Both the position numbers and the translations under genes were made by a program. The notes under the pieces were generated by a model. That model saw nothing but the letters and a program-made list of their open reading frames with translations, ran no database searches and had not been told where the DNA came from. Below are positions 33,098 through 54,756 of a stretch of 64,000 nt of DNA, piece after piece. Location: contig JAFGJK010000142.1 in the NCBI GenBank assembly GCA_016929135.1, forward strand, positions 2,059 through 66,058, in the 5' to 3' direction. The stretch comes from Spirochaetota bacterium. Its GTDB lineage: Bacteria; Spirochaetota; UBA4802; UBA5550. Each line of letters starts with the position of its first letter. The stretch's first letter is position 1.

Positions 33098-33103
33098 TTC
33101 CTG

Positions 33104-33177
33104 TGGGCGATATTGGATTCGAACCAACGACCTCCTGCATGTGAGGCAGGCGCTCTAACCGACTGAGCCAATCGCCC
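33104..33177 (-). tRNA. tRNA-Val (anticodon CAC)
   Basis: The reverse complement GGGCGATTGGCTCAGTCGGTTAGAGCGCCTGCCTCACATGCAGGAGGTCGTTGGTTCGAATCCAATATCGCCCA folds as a 74-nt cloverleaf. It has a 7-bp acceptor stem, a CTCACAT anticodon loop and a GTTCGAATC T-loop. No CCA is encoded. Confidence 0.95.
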
Positions 33178-33358: not shown

Positions 33359-34273
33359 ATGAAAAAGATCGTACTTCTCTGTGTCACCGTGTTCATTTTA
33401 CTGGCATCTCTATCCATGGCACGGGCCGTTACCCTGAGCGTGGGGGGGAACCTCTGGTACAACTGGTGGATCCCGGCCTTCAAGGAGGGGAAGCTGGAAT
33501 CCATGGTATATGCCCCATCGGTGCCGTACCTGGCCTACCGGTTTTCCGACAGCAGGGACATCGGCTCCACCTCAACCGTCACCGGCGGTCCGGCCCTCTC
33601 GGTCAGGATCGACCGGTTCTCCCTCTCCACGGTGCTGGTCTACGCCAATTACAGGGTCAGGAACAACGGACTCACGAGGAGCCGCAATTATATTCTGTAC
33701 CCTGCATTGCCCGCCTCTGCCGCAGCGGCATATGTCGAATCATACCTCAGTATCAGGCGATGGGACAGCGATACCACCCTGAGCTATTCCCTCACCCCCG
33801 TGATGTCCCTGCTCCTGGGGCTGAAGGTCCAGAGCTACAGCCTGAAGAGCAGGACCGCCGACCTGGTTTCGGGTATCGTCAAGGCGTCCGATGACTTCAT
33901 CACCGTCGGTCCCGGTCTCGGTCTCGGCCTCACCATACCCCTGGTGTCCGACCTCTTCCTGATCTGCAACACTACCGTTTTCCTCCTCTGGAGCAGGCAG
34001 GAGGCATCGAAGAACATAATGGTGCCGTCGGGGGTCGTCATTTACTTTGACGACGGCAGCTACTTCGGCCTGGGAACCACCGTCATGGTTGCCGGTGCCT
34101 ACGTCCTCTCCTCGGTCAACACCACCCTGGCCCTGGGACTGCGTTACCAGCTGCTCTGGTACCGCAGTCTGGACGACCGTTCCGGCACCGTGAACGTCGA
34201 CCGGAAGATGGATCACAACTGTGGCATCACCTTATCGGCGATCTACACCTTCGATTTTTCAAATGATGATTGA
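33359..34273 (+). CDS. Secreted hypothetical protein, probable outer-membrane beta-barrel
   Basis: Signal peptide MKKIVLLCVTVFILLASLSMARA, alternating hydrophobic beta-strand pattern, aromatic-rich C-terminal strand (LSAIYTFDF). Confidence 0.6.
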   Translation: MKKIVLLCVTVFILLASLSMARAVTLSVGGNLWYNWWIPAFKEGKLESMVYAPSVPYLAYRFSDSRDIGSTSTVTGGPALSVRIDRFSLSTVLVYANYRVRNNGLTRSRNYILYPALPASAAAAYVESYLSIRRWDSDTTLSYSLTPVMSLLLGLKVQSYSLKSRTADLVSGIVKASDDFITVGPGLGLGLTIPLVSDLFLICNTTVFLLWSRQEASKNIMVPSGVVIYFDDGSYFGLGTTVMVAGAYVLSSVNTTLALGLRYQLLWYRSLDDRSGTVNVDRKMDHNCGITLSAIYTFDFSNDD

Positions 34274-34331
34274 AAAATAACGGGCGGATGCGATAATTGC
34301 CGGAAATAATCGAACATCGCGGAGGTTTTCA

Positions 34332-34538
34332 ATGAATACGTTTGTGTCCATCGTCCGTGGCATCGGCTACCTGCTGACCGCTGTGGGCGTCCTCAGCCTG
34401 GTGAACACCGCCTTCGGACTGCACCTTCGTTACCGGGGCACGAACCTGCCCAACGATTACGTGGCCGCCGGTGCGCTCCTGGTGATTGGCGTCGTCGTGG
34501 CCGGCATCGGCTACCTCATGGGAAGGAGAAGAGGGTAG
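34332..34538 (+). CDS. Small two-TM membrane protein, hypothetical
   Basis: 68 aa with two hydrophobic helices and a basic C-terminus (MGRRRG). RBS GGAGG lies 8 nt upstream. Confidence 0.55.
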   Translation: MNTFVSIVRGIGYLLTAVGVLSLVNTAFGLHLRYRGTNLPNDYVAAGALLVIGVVVAGIGYLMGRRRG

Positions 34539-34689: not shown

Positions 34690-35421
34690 ATGAGGATACT
34701 TCTGTACATACCGTTCCCGGCGCTTCTGCTTGCCCTCCTGTGCCGGATATCCGCTCCCCCCGCGGCGGCGCAGCCGGCGGACATCACCGTGATCTCCTCG
34801 TTCACCACCTCCGTGGCAGAGCAGGACGACAATGTGAAGCGCAACATCCATCTGGCGTGCCTGAAGCTCCAGGGGGTCCAGATCGGCCCCGGGGAGCGCT
34901 TCTCTTTCAACGCCACCGTGGGGGAGGCGGGCGCCGCGCAGGGGTTCGTGGACGGCAGGGTGCTCTACATGGATACCGTGGTTTACGAGGCCGGGGGCGG
35001 CCTCTGCCAGGTGTCATCCACCCTGTACAACGCCATGCTCCTGGCGGGGTTTGCCATCGTCACGCGCCACCGCCACTTCCAGCCGGTGACCTACGTGCCG
35101 CCGGGGCTCGACGCCACCATCAAGTACGGGAAGAAGGACCTGGTGATGAGGAATCCCCATGACATGACGGTGCGCATCGACGCGGCGGTGGAGGGGGGGA
35201 GCCTCGTGGTGAAGCTCCTGGCGCCGCGGCCCCTGGGGTTCCAGTACGACATGGCCCTGGACGAGGAGGAGCTGGAGATCCCCTTCGCCCAGGAGGAGGA
35301 CGGATCGAGGATCAGAAACGGCCTGTCGGTCTACGTCTACCGGATAAAGATGCGGGACAGGAAGGTGCTGGAGCGGCAGCTCCTCTATAAAGACTACTAT
35401 CCCCCGGTGCGTTTCAGATGA
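34690..35421 (+). CDS. VanW-domain protein (secreted)
   Basis: Signal-like N-terminus, GERFSFNATVGE, GGGLCQVSSTLYNAMLLAGF, RHRH..PVTYVPPGLDATI, and DLVMRNP. Confidence 0.8.
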   Translation: MRILLYIPFPALLLALLCRISAPPAAAQPADITVISSFTTSVAEQDDNVKRNIHLACLKLQGVQIGPGERFSFNATVGEAGAAQGFVDGRVLYMDTVVYEAGGGLCQVSSTLYNAMLLAGFAIVTRHRHFQPVTYVPPGLDATIKYGKKDLVMRNPHDMTVRIDAAVEGGSLVVKLLAPRPLGFQYDMALDEEELEIPFAQEEDGSRIRNGLSVYVYRIKMRDRKVLERQLLYKDYYPPVRFR

Positions 35422-36035
35422 GGGGGGCGGTGCGATGCGCGGTCCTGGCCGCTGCCGTGTTCGCGGTGTTGTGCGGTCACGCCGATGTCGGCGATCCCCT
35501 GGAGCGGTGGCGCCGCTTCACCCGCACGCCGGGGGCGTCCGCCCTGCTGGGGTGGATGCGGTGCGCCGCGTCGCGGGAACTCGGGGGGGGGTGCCGCGCG
35601 GGGAGGATCCCGAAAACGCCCCCGGTATTCGGCCGCCTCGGGCTCTTCGTCACCGTGCTGAGGGGGCGGGAGGTCCGGGGATGCTACGGCGCCTTCGACC
35701 ACGGAAGCGGGGACCTCGCGGATCTCCTGCGGGAGTATCTGAAGGGCGCCCTGCGGCACGACGTCAGGCATTCGCCGGTGGAGCTCCAGGAGCTCGAACA
35801 GGTCAGGCTGGTGATCACCATCGCCGGGAGGCCCGAGCAGACGGACGATCTGGACGGGGTCGACCTCTCCACCCGCGGCCTCCTCATCGGCACCGATGAG
35901 GGGGGGGAGATGGTGTTCGTCCCCGCCGAGGTGCGCACCGTCGAACAGATCAGGAGGTCCCTCGGGGACAGGGCCATAACCCAGCTCTCCGCCTTCAGGG
36001 CGGTGACCATCCAGGAGAAGCGAGGTTCGCCATGA
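35418..36035 (+). CDS. AMMECR1-like domain protein with an N-terminal signal peptide
   Basis: GLFVTVLRGREVRGCYGAF matches the AMMECR1 LRGCIG core. It also has D.RHSPVELQELEQVRLVITI and GLLIGTDEGGEMVFVPAEV. The N-terminus AVLAAAVFAVLCGHA is signal-like. There are ATGA overlaps on both sides. Confidence 0.6.
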   Translation: MRGAVRCAVLAAAVFAVLCGHADVGDPLERWRRFTRTPGASALLGWMRCAASRELGGGCRAGRIPKTPPVFGRLGLFVTVLRGREVRGCYGAFDHGSGDLADLLREYLKGALRHDVRHSPVELQELEQVRLVITIAGRPEQTDDLDGVDLSTRGLLIGTDEGGEMVFVPAEVRTVEQIRRSLGDRAITQLSAFRAVTIQEKRGSP

Positions 36036-39000
36036 AGAGACAGATATCGACCGCCCTGTGTGTGATGATTGCCGCCGCGTGCGCCCTCTGCTGCAGCGGA
36101 ATACGCAGAGACATCCTGCAGGACGGCAGGGCCTTCTTCTCCGGACCGGCCACCCTGGTTCCGGAGCAGGAGACACTGAAGGGGCGAGTGCTGGACAGCA
36201 TCACCTCGAAGGGGATCGCCGGGGCGCAGGTGGAGATGAAGAACGCGAACCTGGGCGTGGGATACCACAAGGCCACCGCCGCGTCCGACGGCTCCTTCGT
36301 CATCGATGACTACATTCCACAGGTTCGCTATCACATCGCGGTGAGCGCCCCGGGATACGTGCCGCACCGGGGGTACCTCCAGTCCAACACCACCATCTAT
36401 CTCGATCCCCAGGCGGTGGTGCGCGGTACGGTGCGGGACTCCGCCGGCGTCCCGCTCCCCGGTGTGGAGGTGAAGCTCCGCTCCGGAGCGGGGCGCGGCG
36501 GCAACAACGATTCCGGTGAGGGCGGAGAGGGGAGGGGCGGCCACTCCTGCACCACCGACGCCCGGGGGGGGTACCGGTTCGATCAGCTGCGGAGCGGCGC
36601 GTATCTCATAACGTTCCGGAAGAGCGGCCATATCGAGGAGACCGCCAGGCTCGGCTCCGTTCTCCGTGGCGGCGAGCTGGACCTCCCCATGGTCCTCTAC
36701 CGCACCGCCTCGGTCTCGGGGAAGGTGCTGATCCAGGGGACCGGCGCACCGGCGGTGAACCTCACGGTGTCGCTCAAGGCCCAGGGCGTCCAGTACAGCG
36801 CAAGCACCTTCCAGGACGGCTCCTACTCCATCGACGACGTGCGGCCCGGCAGGTACGACCTGTACATCCAGCATCCGGGATTTCACCAGCTCCGGAAGGG
36901 CCCGGTGACCGTCACCGAGGGGCAGCGCATGCGGGGGATGGACTGGCAGGTGAAGGCAAAGGAGCCGGCCCTCTCTGTCTATGCCTACCGCTACACCTTC
37001 TCGCCGGTGAACAAGATCGAGTTCAACCTGCGCACCTTCCGCCTCGAGAAGGTGCGGGTGCGGATATACCGGGTGCCGCCGTCGGTCCTTTCGCACGGCA
37101 GGGGCGATCCCAACACCATGAGCCCCTCGGCGAGGGGATTCCATACGGTGAAGGAGTGGGACCAGCCGGTGAAGGATTTTCAGCCCTTCCAGTGGCAGTA
37201 CGGCACGATGGAGATGTCCGGTCCGCTGGCCACCGGCGGCTACTGCGTCGAGGTTTCGGCTTCGGACAGGCTCTTTGACCGCAAGTTCTTCACCGTCACC
37301 TCCGTGGGGGTGGTGGTGAAGCGGTCCCAGAGGACGGTGCTGGCCTACGTCACCAACCTGGTGAACAACGACCCGGTACGGGGGGCGAAGGTTGTCCTTT
37401 TCGACAACACCCCGGCCAAGGAGCGCCAGCGGCTGTCGGCCCGTCCGGTGAATCCCCCCCAGAGGATCGAGGACCTGCCGCTCAGGGTCCTCCACCGCGG
37501 CGAGACCGGAAGCGACGGCATCTACCGGCACGGGATAGAATCCTCGAGACACCTGTCGGTTCTGGTGGTGGGGGGCGACGGGAGCTACGCATTCTGCAAT
37601 ACCGGATCGCCCGACGTCTTCGACCGCGAGCTGAACAAGGTGATGGCCTACACCGACAGGCCGGTCTACCGCGTCGGCGACACGGTTCAGTTCAAGCTGA
37701 TGGGGAAGCGGCGCGACGACAGGAGCGTCCCCATCGCGGGGAGGAAGCTCTACATCATGATCCTCGACGCCACCGGGGGGATCGTGAAGCGCGGGAACGT
37801 CACTCTGGACGACTGGGGGAGCGCCAAGGGGTCGATACAGCTTTCCGGTGAGCCCAGGCTCGGGCGGTGGGACATCCGTGCCGGCCTCAATCCCAAATCG
37901 CTCGCCGGCGTCGGGCACTTTTACGTGGAGCAGTACCGGAAGCCGGAGTTCACCGTTGCAATCGAGCCCTCGAAGAAGTTCTTCGTCAACAACGAGACGG
38001 CGGAGTTCCGGGTCACCACGAAGTACCTCTTCGGCGCGCCCCTCAGGAACGCCGTGGTGAAGTACCGCTTCTACGAGTCGCGCCTAAGGGACACCGACAC
38101 CACCTACTGGTGGGAGGCGGATTACGGCGGGGGACAGAGCTACAACAGGATACGGCTCGAGGGGGACAAGACCACCGACGAGAACGGCACCGCCGTGCTC
38201 AGGCTCGAGTGCAAGAACCTACCTTACGACCGTGAGATCACCTGCGAGGCCACCGTGACCGACAGCTCCAACGTGAGCATCACCTCGCGGAAGGGTGTCC
38301 GCGTGGGGAGGGGGGAGTACTACATCAAGATCGAGCCCGCCAGGACCTTCTTCGTGAACAAGGACGTGAACCGCGTGACCCTCAGGACCGTGGACCACGC
38401 CGGCCGCCCGGTCCGGGAAAAAGTGGACCTGAAGGTGTACCGCTACATCTGGCGTCCACTGCAGATGGTCTATGTCCACGAGTCGCGCCCGGTGTATGAG
38501 AAGCGGGTGGAAACCGATGCACGGGGAAAGTTCCTGCTCACCCTCCCCGAGGTGGCGGCCACCGGCGAGTACGACATCGTGGCCGGGGGCTCCGACAGGT
38601 TCGGCAACCTGATCAGCGCCTCCAGGGTGGTGTGGATCTACGCGGGTCCCGGCGGCACGCTCGCCTCGAGGCTCAAGAACCTGGAGCTTTCGGTGGATCG
38701 TACCAGGCTCGACGGGCCGGGGGAGATCACCTGCCTGGTGAAGAGCCGCTTCCCCGACGCCACGGTCTGCCTGACCCTGGAGGGGCGCGACGTCTACGAG
38801 GCCAGGGTGGTGCGCCTGAAGGGGCACATGGCAACGGTGAATTTCACCATTAAGGACGCGTACGCCCCGAATCTCTACGTGAGCGCCATGGCCCAGGTGA
38901 ACCGGGGGCTCTACACCGCGAAGGCCGACGTGGCCCTCCCCAAGGGGGACACGAAGCTCCTCATCGCCATCGAGACCGACAAGGAGACCTACGGTCCCGG

Positions 39001-41377
39001 CGAGAAGGCCACGGTGACGCTCAGGGCGCGGGACGAGAAGGGGAACCCGGTACCGGCGGACATATCACTGGGGTGCGTCGACGAGGGGATCTACAGCGTC
39101 AGGCCGGACCACACGCCGTCCCTCATGGACTACTTCTACTCCAGGCTGGCGAATCTGGTGCTCACCGCCTATTCCTTCCCGGTGACGCTGCTGGCCGGCG
39201 CCATAAAGGACGTGATCGAGCAGGTGCGGGAGCGCTTCCGCGACACCGCCTTCTGGCAGCCGGATATCCGCACCGACGCCCGGGGGGTGGCGGTGGTCTC
39301 CTTCGACCTGCCGGACAACCTGACCACCTGGAGGCTTACCGCCCGGGGGCACGACAGGCACGGCAGGGTCGGCGAGGCGGTGAAGAAGGTCCTGGCGACA
39401 CAGGAGATGGTGGCCCGAATCGGCAGGCCCCGCTTCTTCATCGAGGGGGACAGGGTCGGCATCATCGGGATCGTCAACAGCAACTCCCCGCGGGGCCTTG
39501 AGAGGGTGACTGCGGAGATGAAGGTGAACGACAAGACCGTGGCGCCGGACCAGGCCATCGCCCTCTCCCTCCCCCCATTCGGGACCGCCAGGCAGTTCTA
39601 CACGGTAGCGGTGCCGGAGTCGCTCAAGGAGATGGTCCTCTTCTTCAAGGCCGGTGCCGACGCCAAGGCGCGCGACGCACTTCGGATCGCCGTGCCGGTG
39701 GAGCGCCGCGGCACCCCCTACAGCCTCTTTGCCCCCGGGGACCTGGATACAAACAGGACCGTGGCGCTCTCCCCGCTGGGGGACACCGATGATTTCGAGT
39801 ATCGCCCGGAATCCCTCCGCATCACCGTGAACCCGGGACCGCTGCAGCGGATGCTCAGGGCGGCGCGGTGGCTCCGGGGATACCGCTACGGCTGTGTGGA
39901 GCAGCTCCTCTCCAAGACGGTGCCGGTGATGGCGCTGAAGAGGCTGCTGTCGAATCGGGGGATGTCGCAGTACCTGAAGGACGACAAGCTGGAGGAGCGG
40001 CTGGGGAGGGCCCTGCGCAGAATCGAAAGCGCACAGAATGCCGACGGCACCTGGGGATGGTTCCCCTCGGGCGAGGCGAACATGGACGTCACCGCCTACG
40101 TGCTCCAGAACTTCAAGACCGTTTCCGATTTCGGTTTCAGGCGCGACGAGAATTCCGTACGCAGGGGGATCGAGGCGGTGAAGCGCGGGGCGCGCAACGG
40201 GATGATCAATCCCGACAGCAGGGCCTACTACCTCTACGTGGAGTCCCTCTGGAACGTCGGGGACCTGGACACCACCAGGGCGATCGCCGCCATGAAGGAT
40301 CAGAACCCCTACCGGCTGGCCATGCTGCTCCGGACCCTGACGCAGCTGAAGCGGAGCGGCAGGATCAGACCCGAGGAATACACGACCCTGGCCTCCTCCT
40401 GCGCGGAGCGGCTCAGGTCCATGATGAGGCGCGACGGGCGGGGCGTCTTCTGGGAAGCCACCGCGGACCAGGCCTACAGCTGGGCCGGCGGCAACACCGA
40501 GGTGTCCGCCGCGGTCCTCTCGGCGCTCCTGGAATCCGGCGACACCTCCGCAATACCGGCGCAGCTGGCGTCGTCCCTCTCGAGGCGGGGCTACATGGAG
40601 GCCTGGCGGTCCACCAGAGAGACCGCGGCGGCGATGATGGCCCTCTGCGGGTACCTGGGCAAGGCGCAGGGCCAGCTCTCGCCGTCGGGATCGGTGCGCT
40701 TCTCCCTGAACGGGAAGGACCTGGGGACGCTCCAGTACGGCGGGAGCAGGGATCCCTCGGATCTCACCCGGGTGATACCCCTGGGGGACATGAAGGCGGA
40801 GAAATATTCCGTCACGGCCGACGGCGGTGGGAGCGGCGTGAGCTTCGACTGCGTCATGGAGGGGCACCTCTACTTCGCGAGGAAGGGGATACTCTCCCTC
40901 TTCTCCTCCGAGGAGGGGGGGATCAGGAGCTTGGAAAACGGCGTGAGCCTCACCAGGACCTTCCACTCCATCGCCAGGGTGCGCGACGCCAACAACCGGG
41001 AGTACATGGTCCCCCAGCGTATATCAGAGAAGGGGCGCATCAAGGTGGGCGACGAGGTGATGGTGAAGGTCCGCTTCAGAGCCCAGGACGATTTCTCGTA
41101 TCTGGTGGTGGAGGACTACCTCCCCTCGGGCTTCGAGGTGGTGAAGACGGACGCCTACGGCGGCGGTGGGGACTACGCCCACCAGGAGCGGTGGGACGAC
41201 CGGATGCTCTTCTTCTTCTCGAAGGTGAGAAAGGGGACCATTTACGATGTGGCCTATATCATGAGGGCCGAGCTGCCGGGGAGCTTCTTCGTGAAGCCTG
41301 CGCGGGCCGAATGCATGTACGAGCCCTCGGTGCAGGGATGGTCCCGTGCCTCGGGCTTCCAGGTGCATGAGAAGTAG
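36032..41377 (+). CDS. Bacterial alpha-2-macroglobulin family protein, thioester type (1781 aa), probable lipoprotein
   Basis: The thioester motif GCVEQ has its Cys codon at 39893 (residue 1288). The N-terminus MIAAACALCCSG is signal- or lipobox-like. Three CarboxypepD_reg-like repeats are present (GRVLDS..GIAGAQVEM, VRGTVRDSAGVPLPGVEVKL and VSGKVLIQGTGAPAVNLTVSL). MG-domain-like repeats follow and the C-terminal region is A2M-like. Confidence 0.85.
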   Translation: MKRQISTALCVMIAAACALCCSGIRRDILQDGRAFFSGPATLVPEQETLKGRVLDSITSKGIAGAQVEMKNANLGVGYHKATAASDGSFVIDDYIPQVRYHIAVSAPGYVPHRGYLQSNTTIYLDPQAVVRGTVRDSAGVPLPGVEVKLRSGAGRGGNNDSGEGGEGRGGHSCTTDARGGYRFDQLRSGAYLITFRKSGHIEETARLGSVLRGGELDLPMVLYRTASVSGKVLIQGTGAPAVNLTVSLKAQGVQYSASTFQDGSYSIDDVRPGRYDLYIQHPGFHQLRKGPVTVTEGQRMRGMDWQVKAKEPALSVYAYRYTFSPVNKIEFNLRTFRLEKVRVRIYRVPPSVLSHGRGDPNTMSPSARGFHTVKEWDQPVKDFQPFQWQYGTMEMSGPLATGGYCVEVSASDRLFDRKFFTVTSVGVVVKRSQRTVLAYVTNLVNNDPVRGAKVVLFDNTPAKERQRLSARPVNPPQRIEDLPLRVLHRGETGSDGIYRHGIESSRHLSVLVVGGDGSYAFCNTGSPDVFDRELNKVMAYTDRPVYRVGDTVQFKLMGKRRDDRSVPIAGRKLYIMILDATGGIVKRGNVTLDDWGSAKGSIQLSGEPRLGRWDIRAGLNPKSLAGVGHFYVEQYRKPEFTVAIEPSKKFFVNNETAEFRVTTKYLFGAPLRNAVVKYRFYESRLRDTDTTYWWEADYGGGQSYNRIRLEGDKTTDENGTAVLRLECKNLPYDREITCEATVTDSSNVSITSRKGVRVGRGEYYIKIEPARTFFVNKDVNRVTLRTVDHAGRPVREKVDLKVYRYIWRPLQMVYVHESRPVYEKRVETDARGKFLLTLPEVAATGEYDIVAGGSDRFGNLISASRVVWIYAGPGGTLASRLKNLELSVDRTRLDGPGEITCLVKSRFPDATVCLTLEGRDVYEARVVRLKGHMATVNFTIKDAYAPNLYVSAMAQVNRGLYTAKADVALPKGDTKLLIAIETDKETYGPGEKATVTLRARDEKGNPVPADISLGCVDEGIYSVRPDHTPSLMDYFYSRLANLVLTAYSFPVTLLAGAIKDVIEQVRERFRDTAFWQPDIRTDARGVAVVSFDLPDNLTTWRLTARGHDRHGRVGEAVKKVLATQEMVARIGRPRFFIEGDRVGIIGIVNSNSPRGLERVTAEMKVNDKTVAPDQAIALSLPPFGTARQFYTVAVPESLKEMVLFFKAGADAKARDALRIAVPVERRGTPYSLFAPGDLDTNRTVALSPLGDTDDFEYRPESLRITVNPGPLQRMLRAARWLRGYRYGCVEQLLSKTVPVMALKRLLSNRGMSQYLKDDKLEERLGRALRRIESAQNADGTWGWFPSGEANMDVTAYVLQNFKTVSDFGFRRDENSVRRGIEAVKRGARNGMINPDSRAYYLYVESLWNVGDLDTTRAIAAMKDQNPYRLAMLLRTLTQLKRSGRIRPEEYTTLASSCAERLRSMMRRDGRGVFWEATADQAYSWAGGNTEVSAAVLSALLESGDTSAIPAQLASSLSRRGYMEAWRSTRETAAAMMALCGYLGKAQGQLSPSGSVRFSLNGKDLGTLQYGGSRDPSDLTRVIPLGDMKAEKYSVTADGGGSGVSFDCVMEGHLYFARKGILSLFSSEEGGIRSLENGVSLTRTFHSIARVRDANNREYMVPQRISEKGRIKVGDEVMVKVRFRAQDDFSYLVVEDYLPSGFEVVKTDAYGGGGDYAHQERWDDRMLFFFSKVRKGTIYDVAYIMRAELPGSFFVKPARAECMYEPSVQGWSRASGFQVHEK

Positions 41378-43457
41378 GTCTGCCGGGGGGGGCGCCCTCA
41401 GGTATCTCGCGGCAGCCGCGGTTCTCCTCTGCCTGCTCCCCGGCGCGCCCCTGGGGGGAACGGACCCCGCCGTGGTGACCCTGTCGATACTGTCGAAGCA
41501 GATCAGACTCGTCGGCGAGGGGAAGCTCGACGGAATCGGCATCGCGCTCCCCCATGATGCGGCGGTGACGGACCTCCTGCGGGGCGAGACCGTTCTGGGC
41601 GGCGAGCTCCGCCTGGTTTCCGCCGGAGGGGAGCCCCTCACCGCAGGGAGGGTCGTGCTCCTCCGGAACGGCAGCCCGGCGGGGGAGGGCTTCAGCATCC
41701 TGGTGCAGCGCCCCGGCGGGGAGATGGAGGTATCGTTCGCCGGCGAGACCAGGCGGTACCCGCTCCCGGCGCAGATCCGTTCGCGGGGGGGGGGCACCGA
41801 AGTCATCGTTACCGAGGAGGCGGCGCGCTACGCGGCCGATTCAGCCGCGGCCGAGTACGGAGCGCTGGGTCCGCACCACGGTGAGGCAATGAAGGCGCTG
41901 ACGATGCTGATATACGCGAAGGTTATCGATCCGAAAACCGGCCGGGCCCACGGCGACTGCGATTTCTGCGACCTGTCGCACTGTCAGGTGTACCGGGGCA
42001 GGACTGGTGCCGGTACGAATCCCATCCGCTGGTGGCCCCTTACGGGGGGGTACTTCTTCCACGCCCGCTGCGGCGGCAAAACGATGGGATGCGCCACCTT
42101 CGGCGGCGACGTCTCCGGAGAGGGAAACGCCCTCGGGGACGGCGACTGTACCTGCGTGCCGGTGAAATGTGCCGCGGTGGGCCACAAGGGCCCCCTCTGC
42201 GGCGGGGGCGAATGGAGCGCCTCGCTGGGAGAGGACGAACTGGCAGCGATACTCTTCGGAGGCTCGGCCTCCCCCCCGGCGATGATACGGCGCTACGATC
42301 GGGAGCGGATGCGCGTGGAGGTCTCCTCGGGAGACCGGACGGTGAGCTATCCCGCCGAGGGGTTCCGCCTTGCGGTGAACAGGGTGCGGGGCTGGAGCTT
42401 CATCGCCAGCAACAACTACAGCGTTACCGAGGAGACCCGGACGGGGAGGAGGATCTACACCTTCAGGGGCAGGGGCCTGGGGCACGGGGTGGGACTGTGC
42501 CAGGAGGGGGCGAAGACCCTGGCCGGCATGGGTTATTCGGCGGTGGAGATATTGGAGCACTACTTCCCCGGCTCGCAGTGGCGCGGGGCCGCCGCGGCGG
42601 AATCCCCCACCCCGTATCTCTCCTATGTACTCTTCTCGCTGGAGGACGGCTCGGTGGAATTCATGAGCTATCCCCGTTTCGCCGGGCGGCGCGTCCCCCC
42701 GGGATCCCTCTTCAAGGTGTTGGTTTCCATCTACCTGGCGCTGCACCGGCCCGACCTCCTGGAGCGGTATCGCCACGTCTGCACCGGCGCCGAGGAGGAG
42801 GGGGGGCTCCCCGCCTGCTGGTACCGCCGAGGTCACGGGGAGATCGCCTTCCGGGAGGCCCTGTCGAAGTCGTGCAACCGGTACTTCGCGTCGCTGTGCC
42901 GGCAGATTGACCGGGAGGAATTCGCGCGCCGGATCAATGTCCTGTTCCTGGAGCTGGGGATGCAGTGCCGCTGCCCCGTGCCGGCGAACGACAGGGATTT
43001 CGCGGCCATGCTCTGCGGCACCGATTTTCGCATGAGAATCTCCGTGGAGGATATCATGATCCTGGCCGGGCTTCTGGGGACTGGCGGCCGCTCCGGCGGC
43101 GCCATTGCGCGGGTCCGGCAGACCATCCCGCAGCGGCACCTGGCGCTGATCAGGGAGGCCCTGATGCGGAACATTACGGAGGGGACAGGCTCGGGGGAGG
43201 CGCACCCCTTCGGGCCGGAGCTGAACTACCGTGATCTTCTGGGCCCGGTGCCGGCTGAGGACGCGGTGCTGCGCGGCGTCATGTGGGGGAAGACCGCCAC
43301 GGTGGTGGACGGGCCTGTGGGCGACAGGAGCTACGGCATCTTCATGGGGGGCTTCAGGGGGACCGGCATCGTGGTGCTGCTCTCCCGGGGGAACGGTCAC
43401 CTGGCGGCCCAATGGGCCAGGAGGATCATGGCCGCCCGCGTCCTGCCGCACCACTAG
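41367..43457 (+). CDS. SpoIID/LytB-domain :: penicillin-binding transpeptidase-like fusion protein
   Basis: The N-terminal half is SpoIID-like: HGEAMKALTMLIYAKV, DFCDLSHCQVYRG, FFHARCGGKT, and RGRGLGHGVGLCQEGAKTLAGMGYSAVEILEHYFPGS. The C-terminal half carries the PBP motifs SLFK (SxxK, 42705-42716), SCN (SxN) and KTA(T). ATG 41367 lies 8 nt before the A2M stop; 41346 is an alternative start. Confidence 0.75.
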   Translation: MRSRSAGGGALRYLAAAAVLLCLLPGAPLGGTDPAVVTLSILSKQIRLVGEGKLDGIGIALPHDAAVTDLLRGETVLGGELRLVSAGGEPLTAGRVVLLRNGSPAGEGFSILVQRPGGEMEVSFAGETRRYPLPAQIRSRGGGTEVIVTEEAARYAADSAAAEYGALGPHHGEAMKALTMLIYAKVIDPKTGRAHGDCDFCDLSHCQVYRGRTGAGTNPIRWWPLTGGYFFHARCGGKTMGCATFGGDVSGEGNALGDGDCTCVPVKCAAVGHKGPLCGGGEWSASLGEDELAAILFGGSASPPAMIRRYDRERMRVEVSSGDRTVSYPAEGFRLAVNRVRGWSFIASNNYSVTEETRTGRRIYTFRGRGLGHGVGLCQEGAKTLAGMGYSAVEILEHYFPGSQWRGAAAAESPTPYLSYVLFSLEDGSVEFMSYPRFAGRRVPPGSLFKVLVSIYLALHRPDLLERYRHVCTGAEEEGGLPACWYRRGHGEIAFREALSKSCNRYFASLCRQIDREEFARRINVLFLELGMQCRCPVPANDRDFAAMLCGTDFRMRISVEDIMILAGLLGTGGRSGGAIARVRQTIPQRHLALIREALMRNITEGTGSGEAHPFGPELNYRDLLGPVPAEDAVLRGVMWGKTATVVDGPVGDRSYGIFMGGFRGTGIVVLLSRGNGHLAAQWARRIMAARVLPHH

Positions 43458-43702
43458 CTGCCGGTCCACTCCCGGCGCAGGCCCCCCCGTTCGTAGAACG
43501 AGAGATCCCATGCGTCGCCGCGCTCGTCGTAGCGGAGGATATAGGTGCCGCCGTCATCGGCCCGCACCTTGAAGTAGAGGTACTCGGGGCCGTACCAGCG
43601 GTCGACGACCTCCCTGATCTCCCGCGGGGTCCCGTCCAGGCTGAAGCGCACCGGACGCTCGTGCGCGCGGTACCCTGAATAGCTCTCAACGGTGACCCGC
43701 AC
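43454..43702 (-). CDS. Small conserved-looking hypothetical protein (82 aa)
   Basis: GTG start. The sequence VDRWYGPEYLYFKVRADDGGTYILRYDERGDAWDL looks like a folded beta-rich domain. Its stop overlaps the convergent upstream gene within the palindrome CTAG. Confidence 0.5.
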   Translation of the reverse strand: MRVTVESYSGYRAHERPVRFSLDGTPREIREVVDRWYGPEYLYFKVRADDGGTYILRYDERGDAWDLSFYERGGLRREWTGS

Positions 43703-49476: not shown

Positions 49477-52400
49477 TTATCCGAAGTAATCGAGGACCAG
49501 CATGGTCACGTCGTCTTCCTGGCTTTCGTTCCCCGTGTACACCGCCAACTCCCGCAGTAGGTTGTCGCACATCGCGTCTGGGTCCGGGGACCGCTCGGAA
49601 ATTCCCCTGATCCACGAGAAGAACCAGTCGGTGTCCAGGCCCAGCATCCGCCCCTCGGGATTGATGGTGTCTATTATACCGTCCGTGTACATCAGTATCC
49701 TGTCCCCCCTCTCCAGGCGGGCCGTTACGTTGGTGGAACCGGGCTCGAAGTAGTCGTATATCATCCTGCCGGGGGCCCTGATGAAACGGGTGTCGCCGCT
49801 CCTGTTGATGACGATGCAGGGGGGGTGCCCCGCGCTCGCCGTGGTGAGGGTCCCCCGCCTGAGGTCGATCGCGCAGATGCAGGCGGTGATGAAGTTCCCC
49901 CCCAGCTTCCCCCGCAGGGCGCTCTGGATCTTCGCGATCATGAGGGCAGGGTCTCTGAGGTGCTCGTCCCAGAGGAAGTCCAGCGTGGTGCTCAGGGTCG
50001 AGGAGGTCATGGCGGCGGGTATGCCGTGTCCCGAAACGTCCGAGATGAACAGCCCCAGCATTCCCGATTCCGTGCCGTGCACGATGTTCACGTAGTCGCC
50101 GCCGACGATGCTCATGGGCTTGTAGCGGTAGGCGATGGCGATGTCGTCTATCAGCGGAAGGACCCGGGGGAGCAGGGCCTCCTGAATCGTCTTCGCCATC
50201 TCGATCTCGCTTTTCAGGATGGCGTTTTTCTTTTCGCGCTCGAGAAAGAGGGCGTTGTTGATGGAGATTGCGCACTGCGACATCATGATGGAGAGGAACT
50301 CGAGCCTCTCTGGCGTGAAGATGCCCGCCGCCAGGTTGTTCTCCAGGTAGAGGAAGCCGCTGATGCCCCCCCTGTCGTTTATGGAAAGACAGAGTATGGA
50401 TTTCGACGCGTCCTTCACAATACGCGGGTCCTCCATGAACATCCCCGAGGCGGAGGCGTTGTCCAGTATGACGCTCTCGCCGGTACGCCGCACGTAGTTC
50501 ACCACGGATTCAGGCATGTCCATCCTGTCGCTGGGCGGCCCGACGGTGATCCTGAAGCTCCCCTCCCTGTCGGCGTGTGCCTCTGTGTAGAGCGTTGGCG
50601 TCGGTTCCTGGCTCGTGGCGACGCTCTCTGCGACGATCAGGGGTCTCCCCTCGCTGTAGATGCAGAGGATGCCCCTCCTGGCCCCCGCGTTTTCGACGGC
50701 GATCCGTATGATGATCCGCAGCAGGTTTTCCAGCACCATCTCGCGGGATACCGCCTGTGAGAGCTTCACCACTGCGTCCAGGTCGAGCCGCCTGGATGTG
50801 CCGTCGGTACTGGATGGATCCTGGGACGACGGATTGTGCAGGCCGATGCGGCCCAGGATCTCGCCGTAGCGTTTTCGCAGGTGGGCGGCCTTCGCCTTCG
50901 CCCCCCACTTGTCGTACAGGTAGGCCGCCTCCTCCAGGTAGGATGACGCGCTGCGCCCGCTCCCGAGCCGTATGAGGAAGCGGGCCGCGAGCTCGTTTGC
51001 CAGCGCCGCATAACGCGAGAAACCGCTCTCGATGGCCGCGTCTATGGAACGGTCGTAGCATTCAATCGTCTCCCGGATTCTGCCGGATATCCTGAGGGTC
51101 TCGGCTTCCATGAGGTACCGGTGATGGAGAAAATTTTCCCGGCAGTTGTCGGTCCATGCGCGCATCATCCGGTATTCCCGCCGCATCCTGGCCCTCGCCG
51201 AAAGCCGTGCCGCCGGACTGAGATTATCGTGGTTCAGCGAGGAGGCAAGGAATGAATGGATGCAGAACTCGGCCGACGATGGCGTCCCGACGATGGCCCA
51301 CCGGATCCGGTCGATCTCCCTGACGTGGCGCGGCGCCTCGGCGTAGCGTTCGAAGAGAATCGACAGCTGGAGCTTTGCCAAGTGAAAACCCGCAACACCG
51401 GTATTGTAACCGGCATCTTTCATCCTGGCGAGGCACGACTCCTCGTCGAAGCCGTCGCCGTCGAGGGACCTGGTGTCGGGGGTCGCGCCCTGGAGCGTCT
51501 GCCAGAGGCGGAGGAAGATCATCGCCCTGTCCCTGACGTCCTGGTAGTTGGCGCTTTCGATGATGCCCAGATAGTGCGAGCTGAGCCGCACCGCCTCGGC
51601 GAGATCGATCTGCGGGTCCCACTGGGGGATGCAGTAGCAGGCGAGGGAGGTATAGGTGAGGTCCCCCGACTGGAGCCCGGCGTCCACTGCGTAGTGGAGG
51701 TATGCCGGCATGGTCTTCCAGTGTTCGTTCCAGCCGTGTATGAAGACGCTGTAATTGAACAGGATGCGGCAGCGGATCTCCAGGTCGTTGAACTGTTCGT
51801 TCAGCATCACCCCGGTCTTTCCGAACTCGTAGGAATCCCGCAGTCTGCCGAAGTACCCGGCAAGTATGGCCCCGTAGGTGGTGTAGGCGTACGCCGATTC
51901 CGGGCTGTTGCCGTGGCAAAGCGAGATGTTCACCTGCTTCATGTTCGTCACCACCATGAGGTTCGGGTTGCCCGAGAGGTACGCCGGCGGCCCCAGCTCC
52001 ATCAGTATCCTCATGGAGAGCTTTTTCTCCGGATCGGTGAGTAGCGGGGCCTTCACGATGTCGGCGATGTCCCTCCCGCGCATGTTCCTTTTCGCCTGGA
52101 GGATCTCCCGCAGTATCGCAAGCTTCGAGGGCCTCTTCTTTACCCGTATCCCCAAAAGCGCCAGCCCCCTGATGCCCGCATTGATAGCCTCGTCGAGCTT
52201 CCCCCGCACGGTGTACTGCACCGCCTGCATTCTCAGAATGCGCGCCCGCTCGTAGACGGTACGCGACCGTTCCATGAGCAGAGAGATGATCTCCTCGGCA
52301 CGCCGGAACTCGCCGCAGAGGTAGGCCGCCTGGGAAAGCTCGCTGTGGAGTTCGAAGGTGAGATCGTACTGCTCCTCCCAGGGATTATCCTTCAGGAAGC

Positions 52401-54756
52401 CGATGCCCTTCATGACGTACTGCAGCGCCGGCTGATACGCCGTGGAGAGGCGGGCCCGAATCGCCGCGGCAAGGTTCAGCCTGGCGGCAGCCTCACGCTC
52501 CTGTTCGCCGGTGATAAGTTCGCTCGCCTCGTTCAGATGGTGGGCGATGCGGATCGTCAGGTCGTCCCGCTCTTCTGTCTCGGCGAATCGAAGCATGAGC
52601 CTGCCGATGGTCAGGTGCAGCCGCGGGCGATCCTCCTCACCCACCATGGAATATGCCGCCTGCTGGACCCTGTCATGCTGGAATCGGAAGGTCACGTCGA
52701 AATCAGCCGTCTGTCCCTCCATCCAGGGGGAGGCGCTCAGCATCAGGCGGTATCTGTCGTCCAGCGGGTATATCACCTCCTGCCGCGCCGCCTCCCAGAG
52801 GGCTTCGGCCGCGGCGGCCGGCGTCGTTTCGGAGATGACGGAGAGTGTCTTCAGATCGAAGAAGTTGCCCATGCAGGAGGCCAGTTGGAGCATTTTCAGC
52901 GTCCGGTCCGGCAGGCACTTCAGCTTGTCGATCATGAACTCGATGACGTTGTCGCTGATCTCCTGTGAGCCGATCCGTTCCGGGTTCCACTGCCATCGCC
53001 GATCGTCGTAGGAGAAGGAGAGCCAGCCTTCGCGGTAGAGCCTTTTCAGGAATTCCACCGTGAAGAAGGGATTCCCCTCGGTCTTTCTGTAGACCATTTC
53101 GGTCAGGGGGAGGGAGTGGTGCGTATCGCAGGTGATGGCGTCGGCGATATACCGGTTGACGGTGCCGCGGTCCAGGGGATTCAGCGACAGGGTATCCAGA
53201 ATTCCCGCCTTTCCGGTTTCGGTCAGCAGGAGGAGCAGGGGATGCCCCTCGCGAACCTCGTTGTCACGGTATGCACCGATGATCAGCATGCTCCGCAGAC
53301 CACGGGTCAGGAGCAGCCTCTGGATCAGGTTCAGGGAGGGCGGGTCGCTCCACTGGAGGTCGTCGAGGAAGATCACCAGAGGGTGATCCTCCCGCGCGAA
53401 GATGGAGATGAAGTTCCGCAGGGTGATGATGAAGCGGTTTTCAGATTCCGCCGGATTCACCTGCGGCAGCTTCGGCTGGGGCCCGATGATCGACACGAGC
53501 TCAGGTACCATGTCGGTCATGATGCTTCCGTTGGGGCCCAGCGCCTCAACGAGAAGGTCCCTCCAGACGGCCAGGCGGCTCTCGGACTCCGAGAGGAGCT
53601 GCCTGGTAAGATCCCGGAAGGCCTGGGCCAGGGCGCTGTAGGGATCGTTCCGGTGGTACTGATCGAATTTACCGGCGATGAAGTATCCCTTTTTCTCGGT
53701 AACGGGCCTGTGTATCTCCCCCACCAGGGCCGATTTCCCCACGCCCGCGTAACCCGAGATGGCCAGAAGACGAGCCGGTCCGGCGATGGTTCTGTGGAAG
53801 CAGTTGAGTATCTCCCCCACCTCTCCGTCGCGTCCGTAGAGACGCTGCGGCAGCCTGAAGGTGTCCGGGACATCCTGCTCGCCGGGAGCGAAGTATTCGA
53901 TCCCGCCATCGCGGAGAAGGTCGCGGCAGCGCTCGAGATCGGAGAGGATACCGGCGGTGCTCTGGTACCGGTCTTCCTGGTTTTTCGCCATGAGCTTCAT
54001 TATGATGTCTGACAGGGCCTTCGGAATATTGCTTGCCAGCTCGTGCGGCGGCATCGGCATCCTTGCGATATGTGAGTGGACCATTTCCATCGTGTCGCTC
54101 CCCTGGAAGGGGAGGAAGCCCATGAGTATCTGATAGAAGGTGATTCCCAAAGAGTAGAAGTCGCTCCTGTAGTCCACGGTGCGGTTCATCCGGCCGGTCT
54201 GCTCCGGCGACATGTAGGCCAGCGTCCCCTCGAATCTCCCCGGATTGAGCATCGAGGGATTCTCCTTGGTGAGCCGGCTGGATATGCTGAAGTCAATGAG
54301 GCGCAGTCGGTCGTCGCTCCTGTTCCAGATAAGGTTTGCCGGCTTCATGTCCTTGTAGATGACGCCGTTCTTGTGTATGCCGCTCAGGATTTTTGTGATT
54401 CGTATCGCCAGGTCCAGAAAGATATCGATCCTGTGCGATATGAGGTGTATCTGGCGGCGTAGGGATTCACCGCCGATGTCCTCCATCGCCATGAAGAGGG
54501 TGTTCCTGACATGCCTGAGCTCCAGAACCTGTATCACGCCATCGACGTTGAGACTGCTGATGATATGGAATTCGTGGTTGAGACGCGCCACCTCCTCCTG
54601 CGAGGGATAGGAGGCCTTCAGCATCTTCAGGACGGCGGGGTGCCTGTCACGGTCCCTGAGGCCGCGGTATACCACCGAATGCTGGCTTTCATAAACCTTT
54701 TCTGTGACCGTGTATTCGGGTAATCGTATCATTTCATGCGCTTTATCTCCCGTCAC
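49477..54756 (-). CDS. Multidomain signalling protein: Ser/Thr protein kinase - AAA_16 (STAND) ATPase - TPR-like region - GAF - PP2C/SpoIIE phosphatase (1759 aa)
   Basis: The kinase has AVLKMLK, YKDMKPANLIW, IDFSIS and YMSPEQ. The Walker A motif is GYAGVGKSALVGEI. A long helical/TPR-like middle region follows, then a GAF-like segment. The C-terminal SpoIIE region has GGDYVNIV, FISDVSGHGIPAA, ASAGHPP, MYTDGIID and EDDVTMLVL. Confidence 0.9.
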   Translation of the reverse strand: MTGDKAHEMIRLPEYTVTEKVYESQHSVVYRGLRDRDRHPAVLKMLKASYPSQEEVARLNHEFHIISSLNVDGVIQVLELRHVRNTLFMAMEDIGGESLRRQIHLISHRIDIFLDLAIRITKILSGIHKNGVIYKDMKPANLIWNRSDDRLRLIDFSISSRLTKENPSMLNPGRFEGTLAYMSPEQTGRMNRTVDYRSDFYSLGITFYQILMGFLPFQGSDTMEMVHSHIARMPMPPHELASNIPKALSDIIMKLMAKNQEDRYQSTAGILSDLERCRDLLRDGGIEYFAPGEQDVPDTFRLPQRLYGRDGEVGEILNCFHRTIAGPARLLAISGYAGVGKSALVGEIHRPVTEKKGYFIAGKFDQYHRNDPYSALAQAFRDLTRQLLSESESRLAVWRDLLVEALGPNGSIMTDMVPELVSIIGPQPKLPQVNPAESENRFIITLRNFISIFAREDHPLVIFLDDLQWSDPPSLNLIQRLLLTRGLRSMLIIGAYRDNEVREGHPLLLLLTETGKAGILDTLSLNPLDRGTVNRYIADAITCDTHHSLPLTEMVYRKTEGNPFFTVEFLKRLYREGWLSFSYDDRRWQWNPERIGSQEISDNVIEFMIDKLKCLPDRTLKMLQLASCMGNFFDLKTLSVISETTPAAAAEALWEAARQEVIYPLDDRYRLMLSASPWMEGQTADFDVTFRFQHDRVQQAAYSMVGEEDRPRLHLTIGRLMLRFAETEERDDLTIRIAHHLNEASELITGEQEREAAARLNLAAAIRARLSTAYQPALQYVMKGIGFLKDNPWEEQYDLTFELHSELSQAAYLCGEFRRAEEIISLLMERSRTVYERARILRMQAVQYTVRGKLDEAINAGIRGLALLGIRVKKRPSKLAILREILQAKRNMRGRDIADIVKAPLLTDPEKKLSMRILMELGPPAYLSGNPNLMVVTNMKQVNISLCHGNSPESAYAYTTYGAILAGYFGRLRDSYEFGKTGVMLNEQFNDLEIRCRILFNYSVFIHGWNEHWKTMPAYLHYAVDAGLQSGDLTYTSLACYCIPQWDPQIDLAEAVRLSSHYLGIIESANYQDVRDRAMIFLRLWQTLQGATPDTRSLDGDGFDEESCLARMKDAGYNTGVAGFHLAKLQLSILFERYAEAPRHVREIDRIRWAIVGTPSSAEFCIHSFLASSLNHDNLSPAARLSARARMRREYRMMRAWTDNCRENFLHHRYLMEAETLRISGRIRETIECYDRSIDAAIESGFSRYAALANELAARFLIRLGSGRSASSYLEEAAYLYDKWGAKAKAAHLRKRYGEILGRIGLHNPSSQDPSSTDGTSRRLDLDAVVKLSQAVSREMVLENLLRIIIRIAVENAGARRGILCIYSEGRPLIVAESVATSQEPTPTLYTEAHADREGSFRITVGPPSDRMDMPESVVNYVRRTGESVILDNASASGMFMEDPRIVKDASKSILCLSINDRGGISGFLYLENNLAAGIFTPERLEFLSIMMSQCAISINNALFLEREKKNAILKSEIEMAKTIQEALLPRVLPLIDDIAIAYRYKPMSIVGGDYVNIVHGTESGMLGLFISDVSGHGIPAAMTSSTLSTTLDFLWDEHLRDPALMIAKIQSALRGKLGGNFITACICAIDLRRGTLTTASAGHPPCIVINRSGDTRFIRAPGRMIYDYFEPGSTNVTARLERGDRILMYTDGIIDTINPEGRMLGLDTDWFFSWIRGISERSPDPDAMCDNLLRELAVYTGNESQEDDVTMLVLDYFG

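Follow-up and report, generated by a model that had tools for sequence, protein, structure and literature searches.

We describe a four-gene operon found in a 64,000-nucleotide stretch of DNA from an uncultured Spirochaetota bacterium (assembly GCA_016929135.1, contig JAFGJK010000142.1, positions 2,059 to 66,058 of the forward strand); this whole stretch is called the window here, and positions are counted from its first letter. The genes encode, in this order, a VanW-domain protein, a protein of the AMMECR1 fold, an alpha-2-macroglobulin (A2M) with a thioester motif, and a protein that joins a SpoIID-like domain to a transpeptidase domain of the penicillin-binding protein (PBP) type. It is an undescribed variant within the known A2M operons and does not represent a new kind of system. 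We consider it reasonably probable that it represents an envelope module of an uncultured Spirochaetota clade, namely a lineage variant of the mag/yfa operon in which a protease trap is made together with cell-wall enzymes. We place it among the mag/yfa relatives because its fourth gene appears to share the two domains of E. coli YfaQ and because the MG core of its macroglobulin is closer to YfaS than to YfhM. We found no publication that links A2M with VanW, AMMECR1 or SpoIID or that describes a VanW-AMMECR1-macroglobulin triad, and the deposited annotations call the products of the cluster hypothetical or domain-containing proteins. An earlier annotation of the window made from its letters alone, hereafter the sequence-only reading, had named the cluster its best candidate for an undescribed system, and our literature search agrees with it in that we found no paper on the cluster.

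Four coupled genes and their products

The four open reading frames (ORFs), read from the window sequence together with the ORF list, all lie on the plus strand within 34690-43457 (Table 1) and run into each other. Genes 1 and 2 share the bases ATGA at 35418-35421, genes 2 and 3 share ATGA at 36032-36035, and the ATG of gene 4 (41367-41369) overlaps the final codons of the A2M gene, eight bases before the stop codon TAG at 41375-41377; gene 4 could also start from an in-frame GTG at 41346. The sequence-only reading had claimed these frames and overlaps, and we read them in the same way. It had also ascribed signal-like N-termini to all four products. We see these in the translations as a short basic n-region followed by 12-17 hydrophobic residues, and they are kept in the homologues of the four proteins. 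We infer from this architecture that the four genes are co-transcribed and that their products are exported. The domain assignments of the sequence-only reading proved right, with VanW, AMMECR1 and A2M scoring above the Pfam cut-offs and gene 4 being assigned through a profile of 24 homologues together with an AlphaFold2 (AF2) model.

Gene 1 matches PF04294 with 144 bits (cut-off 27, E 2e-42). VanW had been listed by the sequence-only reading as a domain of unknown envelope function, which does not hold: in 2024 VanW domains were shown to form another, second family of L,D-transpeptidases acting on peptidoglycan, with a Cys-His-Asp triad, common in Gram-positive bacteria and scarce elsewhere, and three of the seven VanW proteins assayed from organisms other than C. 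difficile were active (PMC11348318). The residues C106, H129 and D141 of gene 1 do not vary among six VanW proteins of two phyla that are linked to A2M; by their resemblance to the published motif they form a putative Cys-His-Asp triad, and gene 1 is predicted to be an L,D-transpeptidase. If VanW acts in this way, the operon would encode three wall-acting catalytic domains and not one. The protein shares its VanW catalytic domain, in which Cys, His and Asp are conserved, with Ldt4 and Ldt5 of C. difficile. Unlike them, it has neither PG_binding_4 nor G5 and consists of the bare domain following a signal peptide; its source is a diderm phylum, and its gene is linked in an operon to that of a macroglobulin.

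The match of gene 2 to PF01871 (53.5 bits, cut-off 25) is accompanied by an AF2 model, built with 20 homologues (pLDDT 90.5), that matches the AMMECR1 structures 1ZQ7, 1VAJ and 1WSC only (E 1e-11 to 1e-8). R87, G88, C89 and G91 (R-G-C-x-G), which agree with the RGC(I/Y)G motif conserved in AMMECR1, are invariant in the gene 2 family, and all homologues carry the N-terminal hydrophobic segment. To our knowledge a signal peptide is atypical for the AMMECR1 family, and we know of no function established for the family ever since its discovery.

The macroglobulin encoded by gene 3 begins with three CarboxypepD_reg domains, which are followed by MG2, A2M_BRD, A2M, TED_complement and bMG10, all of them above the Pfam cut-offs. 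Its thioester motif GCVEQ is found at residue 1288, and each of the 30 related A2Ms examined carries GC[TVIA]EQ; a thioester bond is predicted for the window protein. The N-terminus (...IAAACALCCSG) holds four Cys and no textbook lipobox. In most A2M homologues a canonical lipobox, [LVI][AST][GAS]C, ends the signal peptide, and the window A2M is probably a lipoprotein. When compared with the two E. coli macroglobulins, the MG core scores 168 bits with YfaS (27% identity over 642 residues) and 52 bits with YfhM, whereas the TED and C-terminal region aligns to YfhM only; YfaS has no CxEQ. The last residue of the window A2M is a Lys (…FQVHEK). This is also the case in 20 of 25 complete spirochaetal homologues, usually as …V[E/K]KK, and in 13 of 24 A2Ms from other phyla that are linked to transpeptidase or SpoIID genes. 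E. coli YfaS ends in …MQVK, E. coli YfhM, of the pbpC type, in …LIVRP, and the VanW-linked A2Ms of Melainabacteria in …IRE or …IAE. The frequent C-terminal Lys may hint at a covalent attachment to peptidoglycan.

The product of gene 4 is identical to NCBI locus tag JXA20_17770 and has about 40 full-length homologues at 33-42% identity. A profile made from 24 of these homologues matches the SpoIID structures 4RWR, 5I1T and 5TXU over positions 143-396 (E ~1e-11) and class B PBPs over positions 423-526, the part from SxxK to SxN, with 7RD0 as the best match (E 2e-14). The best PBP matches are the zinc-binding C. difficile PBP3 (7RD0) and SpoVD (7RCZ). In Foldseek the AF2 model (pLDDT 80, pTM 0.78) leads to PBP transpeptidase domains as well, and as these fill the list of matches no fold is given there for the N-terminal beta domain (residues 34-150). 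Invariant throughout the family are E163, the string C-D-L-T-H-C-Q, G370-x-G372-H373-G374-x-G376, S447xxK450, S502-C503-N504 and K642-T643; from the motif surrounding it, E163 is a candidate for the catalytic Glu of SpoIID. The Gly/His string at 370-376 agrees with the C-terminal motif GHG(V/L)G(L/M)(S/C)Q of the SpoIID/LytB lytic transglycosylases. C472, C484 and H490 are invariant too, as is C503 of the SxN motif. A zinc tetrad of the form Cys/Cys/His/Cys(SxN) has been defined in C. difficile PBPs (PMC9334274), and C472/C484/H490/C503 is a candidate for such a tetrad. Fusions of transpeptidase and SpoIID from other phyla have C96, C109 and C128 with a consensus His just after C109, and in E. 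coli YfaQ the Cys residues of the tetrad are kept while the His is not. The likeness to the SpoIID proteins of B. anthracis (4RWR) and C. difficile (5I1T/5TXU) and to the zinc-binding class B PBPs is one of profile-level homology, spanning the whole SpoIID domain and the SxxK-to-SxN part. In contrast to the SpoIID lytic transglycosylase and the class B PBPs, gene 4 fuses both domains in one polypeptide, stands in no sporulation context, has no PBP pedestal and carries KT[A/S] in place of KTG.

Relation to the mag/yfa and yfhM-pbpC operons

Bacterial macroglobulins have been divided into two classes, in the scheme as summarised in PMC3735191: those with a thioester that are found with pbpC, and those without a thioester that are found in a mag operon. 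The second class is represented in E. coli by the operon yfaA(DUF2138)-yfaT-yfaS(A2M)-yfaQ(tandem DUF2300)-yfaP, where DUF1175 is the YfaT family and DUF2135 the YfaP family. Its equivalents in the mag operon are MagB for YfaA (DUF2138), MagC for YfaT (DUF1175), and MagA and MagF for YfaP (DUF2135). MagE of P. aeruginosa (PA4488, COG5445, 61.7 kDa) is YfaQ-like in its operon position and size, and MagD has neither the thioester Cys nor a lipobox Cys (PMC3735191). In the mag literature all partners, MagE included, are called proteins of unknown function (PMC3735191; PMC5764988).

The sequence-only reading had held that neither of these arrangements is present in the window. This stands for the first class: E. 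coli PbpC gave no tblastn match at E <= 0.01 to the whole window, and no glycosyltransferase domain occurs anywhere in it. It does not stand for the second, since gene 4 appears to share the domains of YfaQ and the A2M core is nearer to YfaS. YfaQ of E. coli K-12 (L087:3149-4798, minus strand) matches Pfam SpoIID with 27 bits over residues 312-374 (cut-off 23). Its residues 36-156 align to the transpeptidase region of the gene 4 family, including GSLWK (SxxK) and SCG (SxN) (hhalign 86%, E 5e-6), and, in the transpeptidase::SpoIID fusions, the SpoIID part aligns to YfaQ residues 318-363 (hhalign 84%, E 7e-6). A BLASTP comparison of such a fusion with YfaQ was not significant, the relation being seen by profile methods and Pfam only. 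A preprint of 2025 describes YfaQ as a periplasmic protein whose N-terminal half resembles a transpeptidase and whose C-terminal half resembles SpoIID, and reports that deletion of yfaQ leads to wider cells and to a phenotype profile like that of envelope or peptidoglycan mutants; the adjacent macroglobulin is not mentioned there (10.1101/2025.02.11.637708). Gene 4 and YfaQ appear to share two domains in reversed order, which does not establish orthology.

With the mag/yfa operons (magABCDEF; yfaA-yfaT-yfaS-yfaQ-yfaP; 'type II') the window operon has in common that a large macroglobulin is encoded together with several exported partners, that the gene right after the A2M (YfaQ, and MagE by position and size) joins transpeptidase-like and SpoIID-like domains, that the MG core is nearer to YfaS than to YfhM, and that YfaS and the window A2M both end in Lys. 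It differs in that the window A2M has CxEQ and an N-terminal Cys or lipobox region, of which MagD and YfaS have neither, in that gene 4 runs from SpoIID to transpeptidase, the reverse of YfaQ, and in that VanW and a secreted AMMECR1-fold protein are encoded upstream, with no DUF2138, DUF1175 or DUF2135 partners. YfaA, YfaT and YfaP gave no tblastn match in the window, and DUF2138, DUF1175 and DUF2135 no Pfam match in the flanking ORFs. When the VanW and AMMECR1-like families were compared with YfaA, YfaP and YfaT by hhalign no relation was found, which argues that VanW and AMMECR1 are replacements and not divergent homologues of these partners. DUF1175 has been described as an inactive NlpC/P60-like peptidoglycan-binding family (PMC10318531); hence the partners replaced by VanW and AMMECR1 would have been wall-directed as well.

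The likeness to the yfhM (ECAM)-pbpC operon ('type I') is that of an A2M with a thioester motif, probably a lipoprotein, adjoining a gene with a domain of the penicillin-binding transpeptidase type, the TED and C-terminal region of the window A2M aligning to YfhM. Unlike that operon, the window has no PBP1C; its transpeptidase domain is without a pedestal or glycosyltransferase module and is fused to SpoIID, the similarity to YfhM is low, and YfhM is not Lys-ended. The window macroglobulin thus appears to keep thioester and lipobox, the hallmarks of the pbpC class, beside a partner of the mag type.

Conservation of the cluster and its surroundings

A metagenome scan with a profile of the spirochaetal AMMECR1-like proteins gave 59 loci, and the following counts take those with enough flank. 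The AMMECR1-like gene is directly preceded by a VanW gene in 40 of 44 loci and directly followed by an A2M gene in 31 of 37, and gene 4 comes after the A2M in 8 of 18. The sequence-only reading had proposed a four-gene unit. Its tight coupling is real, but gene 4 is inconstant: VanW-AMMECR1-A2M is the constant core, and gene 4 a frequent fourth and the least constant member. As that reading had expected, the gene order is found in other genomes and in metagenomic loci: VanW-AMMECR1-A2M-(small LapA_dom ORF)-gene 4 occurs, with unrelated flanks, in two Spirochaetota metagenome-assembled genomes (MAGs; L001 and L004, on contigs of 0.97 and 1.7 Mb) and in a Leptospirales MAG (L008). Further contexts are VanW-AMMECR1-A2M without gene 4, two genes between AMMECR1 and A2M, and AMMECR1-A2M-gene 4 without VanW. 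Overall the linkage is kept in 31-40 independent contigs at a protein identity of 35-60% and with differing flanks, and because it is seen in dozens of independent contigs the arrangement is far beyond chance. Several relatives carry a gene for a membrane protein of 71-80 residues between A2M and gene 4 (Table 1), which matches Pfam LapA_dom in L001 and L004. The window has no LapA_dom-type gene between these two genes, which overlap there. In a spirochaetal genome of 4.6 Mb a gene for a PrsW-family intramembrane protease (L088:16451-17242) follows VanW-AMMECR1-A2M in the place of gene 4.

A scan of species-representative genomes with the SpoIID domain of gene 4 returned mostly generic SpoIID proteins, with the spirochaetal family undersampled. 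Among the best 80 genome loci listed, 27 have a thioester A2M within 10 kb (<=10 kb), and these include most of the top-ranked ones; chance adjacency would give less than one by our rough reckoning, which assumes about one A2M gene for each genome and a span of 20 kb. In Acidobacteriota, WOR-3, Elusimicrobiota and Melainabacteria a thioester A2M is found beside transpeptidase and SpoIID genes as in the window, and we found no publication describing these clusters. The transpeptidase and SpoIID domains are encoded by separate genes (L012, L060, L062 and L077), fused one way as transpeptidase-SpoIID (L003 and L014), or fused the other way. Such fusion, fission and permutation of domains is what functionally linked partners would show. 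The clusters of Melainabacteria are like the window also in having AMMECR1 and, in L062 and L077, VanW. The other-phylum clusters differ from the window in gene order and strand arrangement, and their A2Ms are about 25% identical to that of the window; in the clusters of Acidobacteriota and WOR-3 the place of VanW and AMMECR1 is taken by DUF1175 and DUF2135-like partners. A thioester-motif A2M together with DUF1175 and DUF2135-like partners, that is, partners of the mag type, occurs in L012, L014 and L060 and in other loci of Acidobacteriota, WOR-3 and Elusimicrobiota. Since thioester, lipobox-bearing A2Ms are found with mag-type partners, the published two-class scheme fails outside the Proteobacteria.

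Around the operon, the sequence-only reading had considered an OMP-like gene (33356) and the small gene with two hydrophobic segments (34332) as possible members. We do not retain them, as neither is present in any of 150 related loci. The 68-codon ORF is separated from gene 1 by a 150-base spacer. It has no Pfam or NCBIfam match, and against a hidden Markov model of the relatives' LapA_dom small proteins it scores 4.8 bits, which is no convincing match. The promoter-like site 5' of this ORF matches the consensus at 10 of 12 positions, and two such sites occur in the region where 1.8 are expected from shuffling. At the other end the stop codon of a convergent 82-codon ORF overlaps that of gene 4; its translation is protein-like (…YGPEYLYFKVRADDGGTYILRYDERGDAWDLSFYE…), and it has no Pfam and no PADLOC match. 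The anti-phage defence models of PADLOC gave 0 matches for seven proteins.

Looking at the window as a whole, G+C is heterogeneous in the left half (1-34000; 0.44-0.61) and uniform in the right half (34000-64000; 0.62-0.67). The shift lies near a tRNA-Val (33103-33177, minus strand) with a strong terminator-like hairpin at 33097-33066, and it could be a genomic island boundary, a low-GC region of the polysaccharide type or a join in the MAG assembly. The sequence-only reading had named a canonical pbpC beside a second A2M as something to look for. No pbpC was found in the window, and a second giant ORF (49477-54756, minus strand), tried as a second A2M, was rejected, other domains being found: its 1759 residues comprise Ser/Thr protein kinase, AAA_16, GAF and SpoIIE/PP2C phosphatase domains.

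Table 1. Positions of the operon genes, their motifs and neighbouring features in the window, and related loci elsewhere.
Feature	Position or locus	Strand	Detail
Gene 1, VanW-domain protein	34690..35421	+	243 aa, PF04294
VanW C106 codon	35005-35007	+
Gene 2, AMMECR1-fold protein	35418..36035	+	205 aa, PF01871
AMMECR1-fold C89 codon	35682-35684	+
Gene 3, thioester alpha-2-macroglobulin (A2M)	36032..41377	+	1781 aa, Pfam domains
A2M Cys-rich region	36080-36094	+	residues 17-21
A2M CVEQ	39893-39904	+	residues 1288-1291
A2M C-terminal Lys codon	41372-41374	+
Gene 4, SpoIID-like + PBP-type transpeptidase	41367 (or GTG 41346)..43457	+	696 aa from ATG
Gene 4, N-terminal part		+	signal/anchor helix, then beta domain, residues ~34-150
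Gene 4, SpoIID-like domain	41814-42599	+	residues ~150-411; invariant E163
Gene 4, PBP-type transpeptidase domain	42624-43454	+	residues ~420-696; S447xxK450, S502-C503-N504, K642-T643-A
Gene 4, candidate zinc tetrad region	42780-42875	+	C472, C484, H490, C503
Promoter-like site, possible operon promoter, weak	34270..34297	+	TTGAAA-16-GATAAT with TG extension, 5' of small ORF
Small ORF, two hydrophobic segments, operon membership doubtful	34332..34538	+	68 aa, upstream of gene 1
Convergent ORF, 3' operon boundary, not operon member	43454..43702	-	82 aa, translation
DUF1175 - A2M - DUF2135-like - transpeptidase::SpoIID fusion - Peptidase_MA-like	L014, Acidobacteriota		Pfam
DUF1175 - A2M - transpeptidase - SpoIID	L060, WOR-3		Pfam
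Transpeptidase - SpoIID, convergent with A2M - DUF1175	L012, Acidobacteriaceae		Pfam
AMMECR1 - A2M - VanW, divergent from transpeptidase - SpoIID	L062, L077, Melainabacteria		Pfam
AMMECR1 - A2M (ends at contig edge), divergent from transpeptidase - SpoIID	L075, Cyanobacteria MAG (Melainabacteria)		Pfam
Transpeptidase::SpoIID fusion just downstream of A2M	L003, Blastocatellia
Small membrane protein between A2M and gene 4	L001:9736-9951, L004:9749-9991, L117:16013-16246, L120:18773-18994, L121:16212-16427, L124:15991-16206

A proposed protease trap with wall enzymes and its alternatives

How could such a module work? By homology, the lipid-anchored thioester A2M would trap proteases entering the periplasm: a protease that cuts the bait region would expose the thioester and be captured by it covalently. 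The VanW L,D-transpeptidase would make 3-3 cross-links, the SpoIID-like domain might cleave glycan strands, and the zinc-site PBP-type domain might act as a D,D-transpeptidase forming 4-3 cross-links. On a breach of the outer membrane, incoming proteases would be neutralised by the trap while its partner enzymes would cut and re-cross-link the wall locally. For the secreted AMMECR1-fold protein with its conserved Cys we propose a role like that of the small Mag partners, in which it might assist or bind the macroglobulin. In evolutionary terms VanW and AMMECR1 may have taken the place of the DUF1175, DUF2138 and DUF2135 partners, and the thioester and lipobox, which look ancestral, may have been retained here and lost in the proteobacterial mag/yfa forms; the YfaQ-type partner would be present here with intact-looking catalytic motifs. 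We infer both the activities of the enzymes and a coupling between trapping and wall repair. The sequence-only reading had proposed a variant of 'trap and repair' with a different logic. A trap joined to wall enzymes fits our results, but the logic is not a different one, as it is shared with the type II operon.

Several points weigh against this proposal. As a single sequence gene 4 stays below the cut-offs of both PF00905 (16.7 versus 22.1) and TIGR02669 (55 versus 83.3), and the third motif is KT[A/S] and not KTG in the whole gene 4 family, so that its acyl-transfer activity may be altered or lost. About half of the related loci whose flanks are long enough have no gene 4 nearby, and two of its homologues (L005 and L007) are remote from any A2M; a fixed trap-plus-repair stoichiometry is hence unlikely. 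No promoter or terminator above background was found in the region, and no terminator-like site after gene 4. The role of the AMMECR1-fold protein as an accessory of the macroglobulin would be a guess, 'repair' is itself no more than an interpretation in the yfhM-pbpC literature, and our evidence comes from the genes of an uncultured MAG.

Instead of repairing the wall, the enzymes might serve the macroglobulin, by opening and resealing the mesh to place a protein of about 195 kDa, by tethering it to peptidoglycan, or both. The N-terminal lipid of the A2M would then sit in the membrane, and VanW or the PBP-like domain would join the C-terminal Lys of the A2M to a stem peptide. Most A2M homologues do have a lipobox, the C-terminal Lys is frequent in the spirochaetal and other-phylum proteins counted above and is present in YfaS and not in YfhM, and a gene for an L,D-transpeptidase is translationally coupled in the operon. 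Enzymes of this kind attach Lpp and OutB to peptidoglycan (PMC12274547), and lipid anchor, C-terminal Lys and coupled L,D-transpeptidase together recall Braun's lipoprotein, which is attached by YkuD-type enzymes. However, precisely the VanW-linked A2Ms of Melainabacteria do not end in Lys, many Lys-ended A2Ms (those of Acidobacteriota and E. coli YfaS) are found without VanW, and VanW enzymes have so far been shown to make 3-3 cross-links only and not to attach proteins (PMC11348318). A C-terminal Lys is moreover common among bacterial proteins, and homologues are not independent samples. We judge placement or tethering of the macroglobulin to be unlikely. Distinctly more doubtful is its most specific form, a covalently wall-tethered trap with an N-terminal lipid, a C-terminal Lys joined to a stem peptide via VanW or the PBP-like domain, and the AMMECR1-fold protein as a Cys-dependent accessory. 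If this were true, the AMMECR1 domain would have a first biochemical context, VanW enzymes would be seen to attach proteins, and operons of the mag/yfa type, including that of the Lys-ended E. coli YfaS, would follow one shared logic.

It might also be that the macroglobulin traps nothing and is a binding protein, such as an adhesin, an S-layer-like protein or a complement-like covalent tag, whose display is supported by the wall enzymes. Thioester domains of other bacterial proteins are covalent adhesins, and the three N-terminal CarboxypepD_reg/Ig-like domains of the window A2M come with a weak match to an S-layer glycoprotein model. Yet this match is one Ig-like repeat scoring 41 against a cut-off of 1400 bits, the A2M domain set is complete and includes the bait-region domain, a TED carrying CxEQ, and bMG10, and the nearest characterised relatives (ECAM, Salmonella A2M and MagD) react with proteases (PMC5764988; PMC3735191), so we consider a binding protein very unlikely. 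Even less can be said for the view that ordinary wall genes stand beside a macroglobulin gene with no functional meaning. It is true that not all related loci have gene 4 and VanW, but the stop and start codons overlap, the linkage persists between contigs that differ in their flanks and have diverged widely in protein sequence, and the same set of domains has been reassembled in another order in other phyla; a meaningless adjacency is in our opinion highly improbable.

In conclusion, we favour the reading of the operon as a spirochaetal variant of the mag/yfa type in which a protease trap is made together with wall enzymes. As a partner resembling a wall enzyme, YfaQ, is present in mag/yfa operons too, the combination of a macroglobulin with peptidoglycan enzymes may be the rule for both classes. 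The operon also offers a testable context for VanW L,D-transpeptidases of diderm bacteria and for a secreted protein of the AMMECR1 fold.

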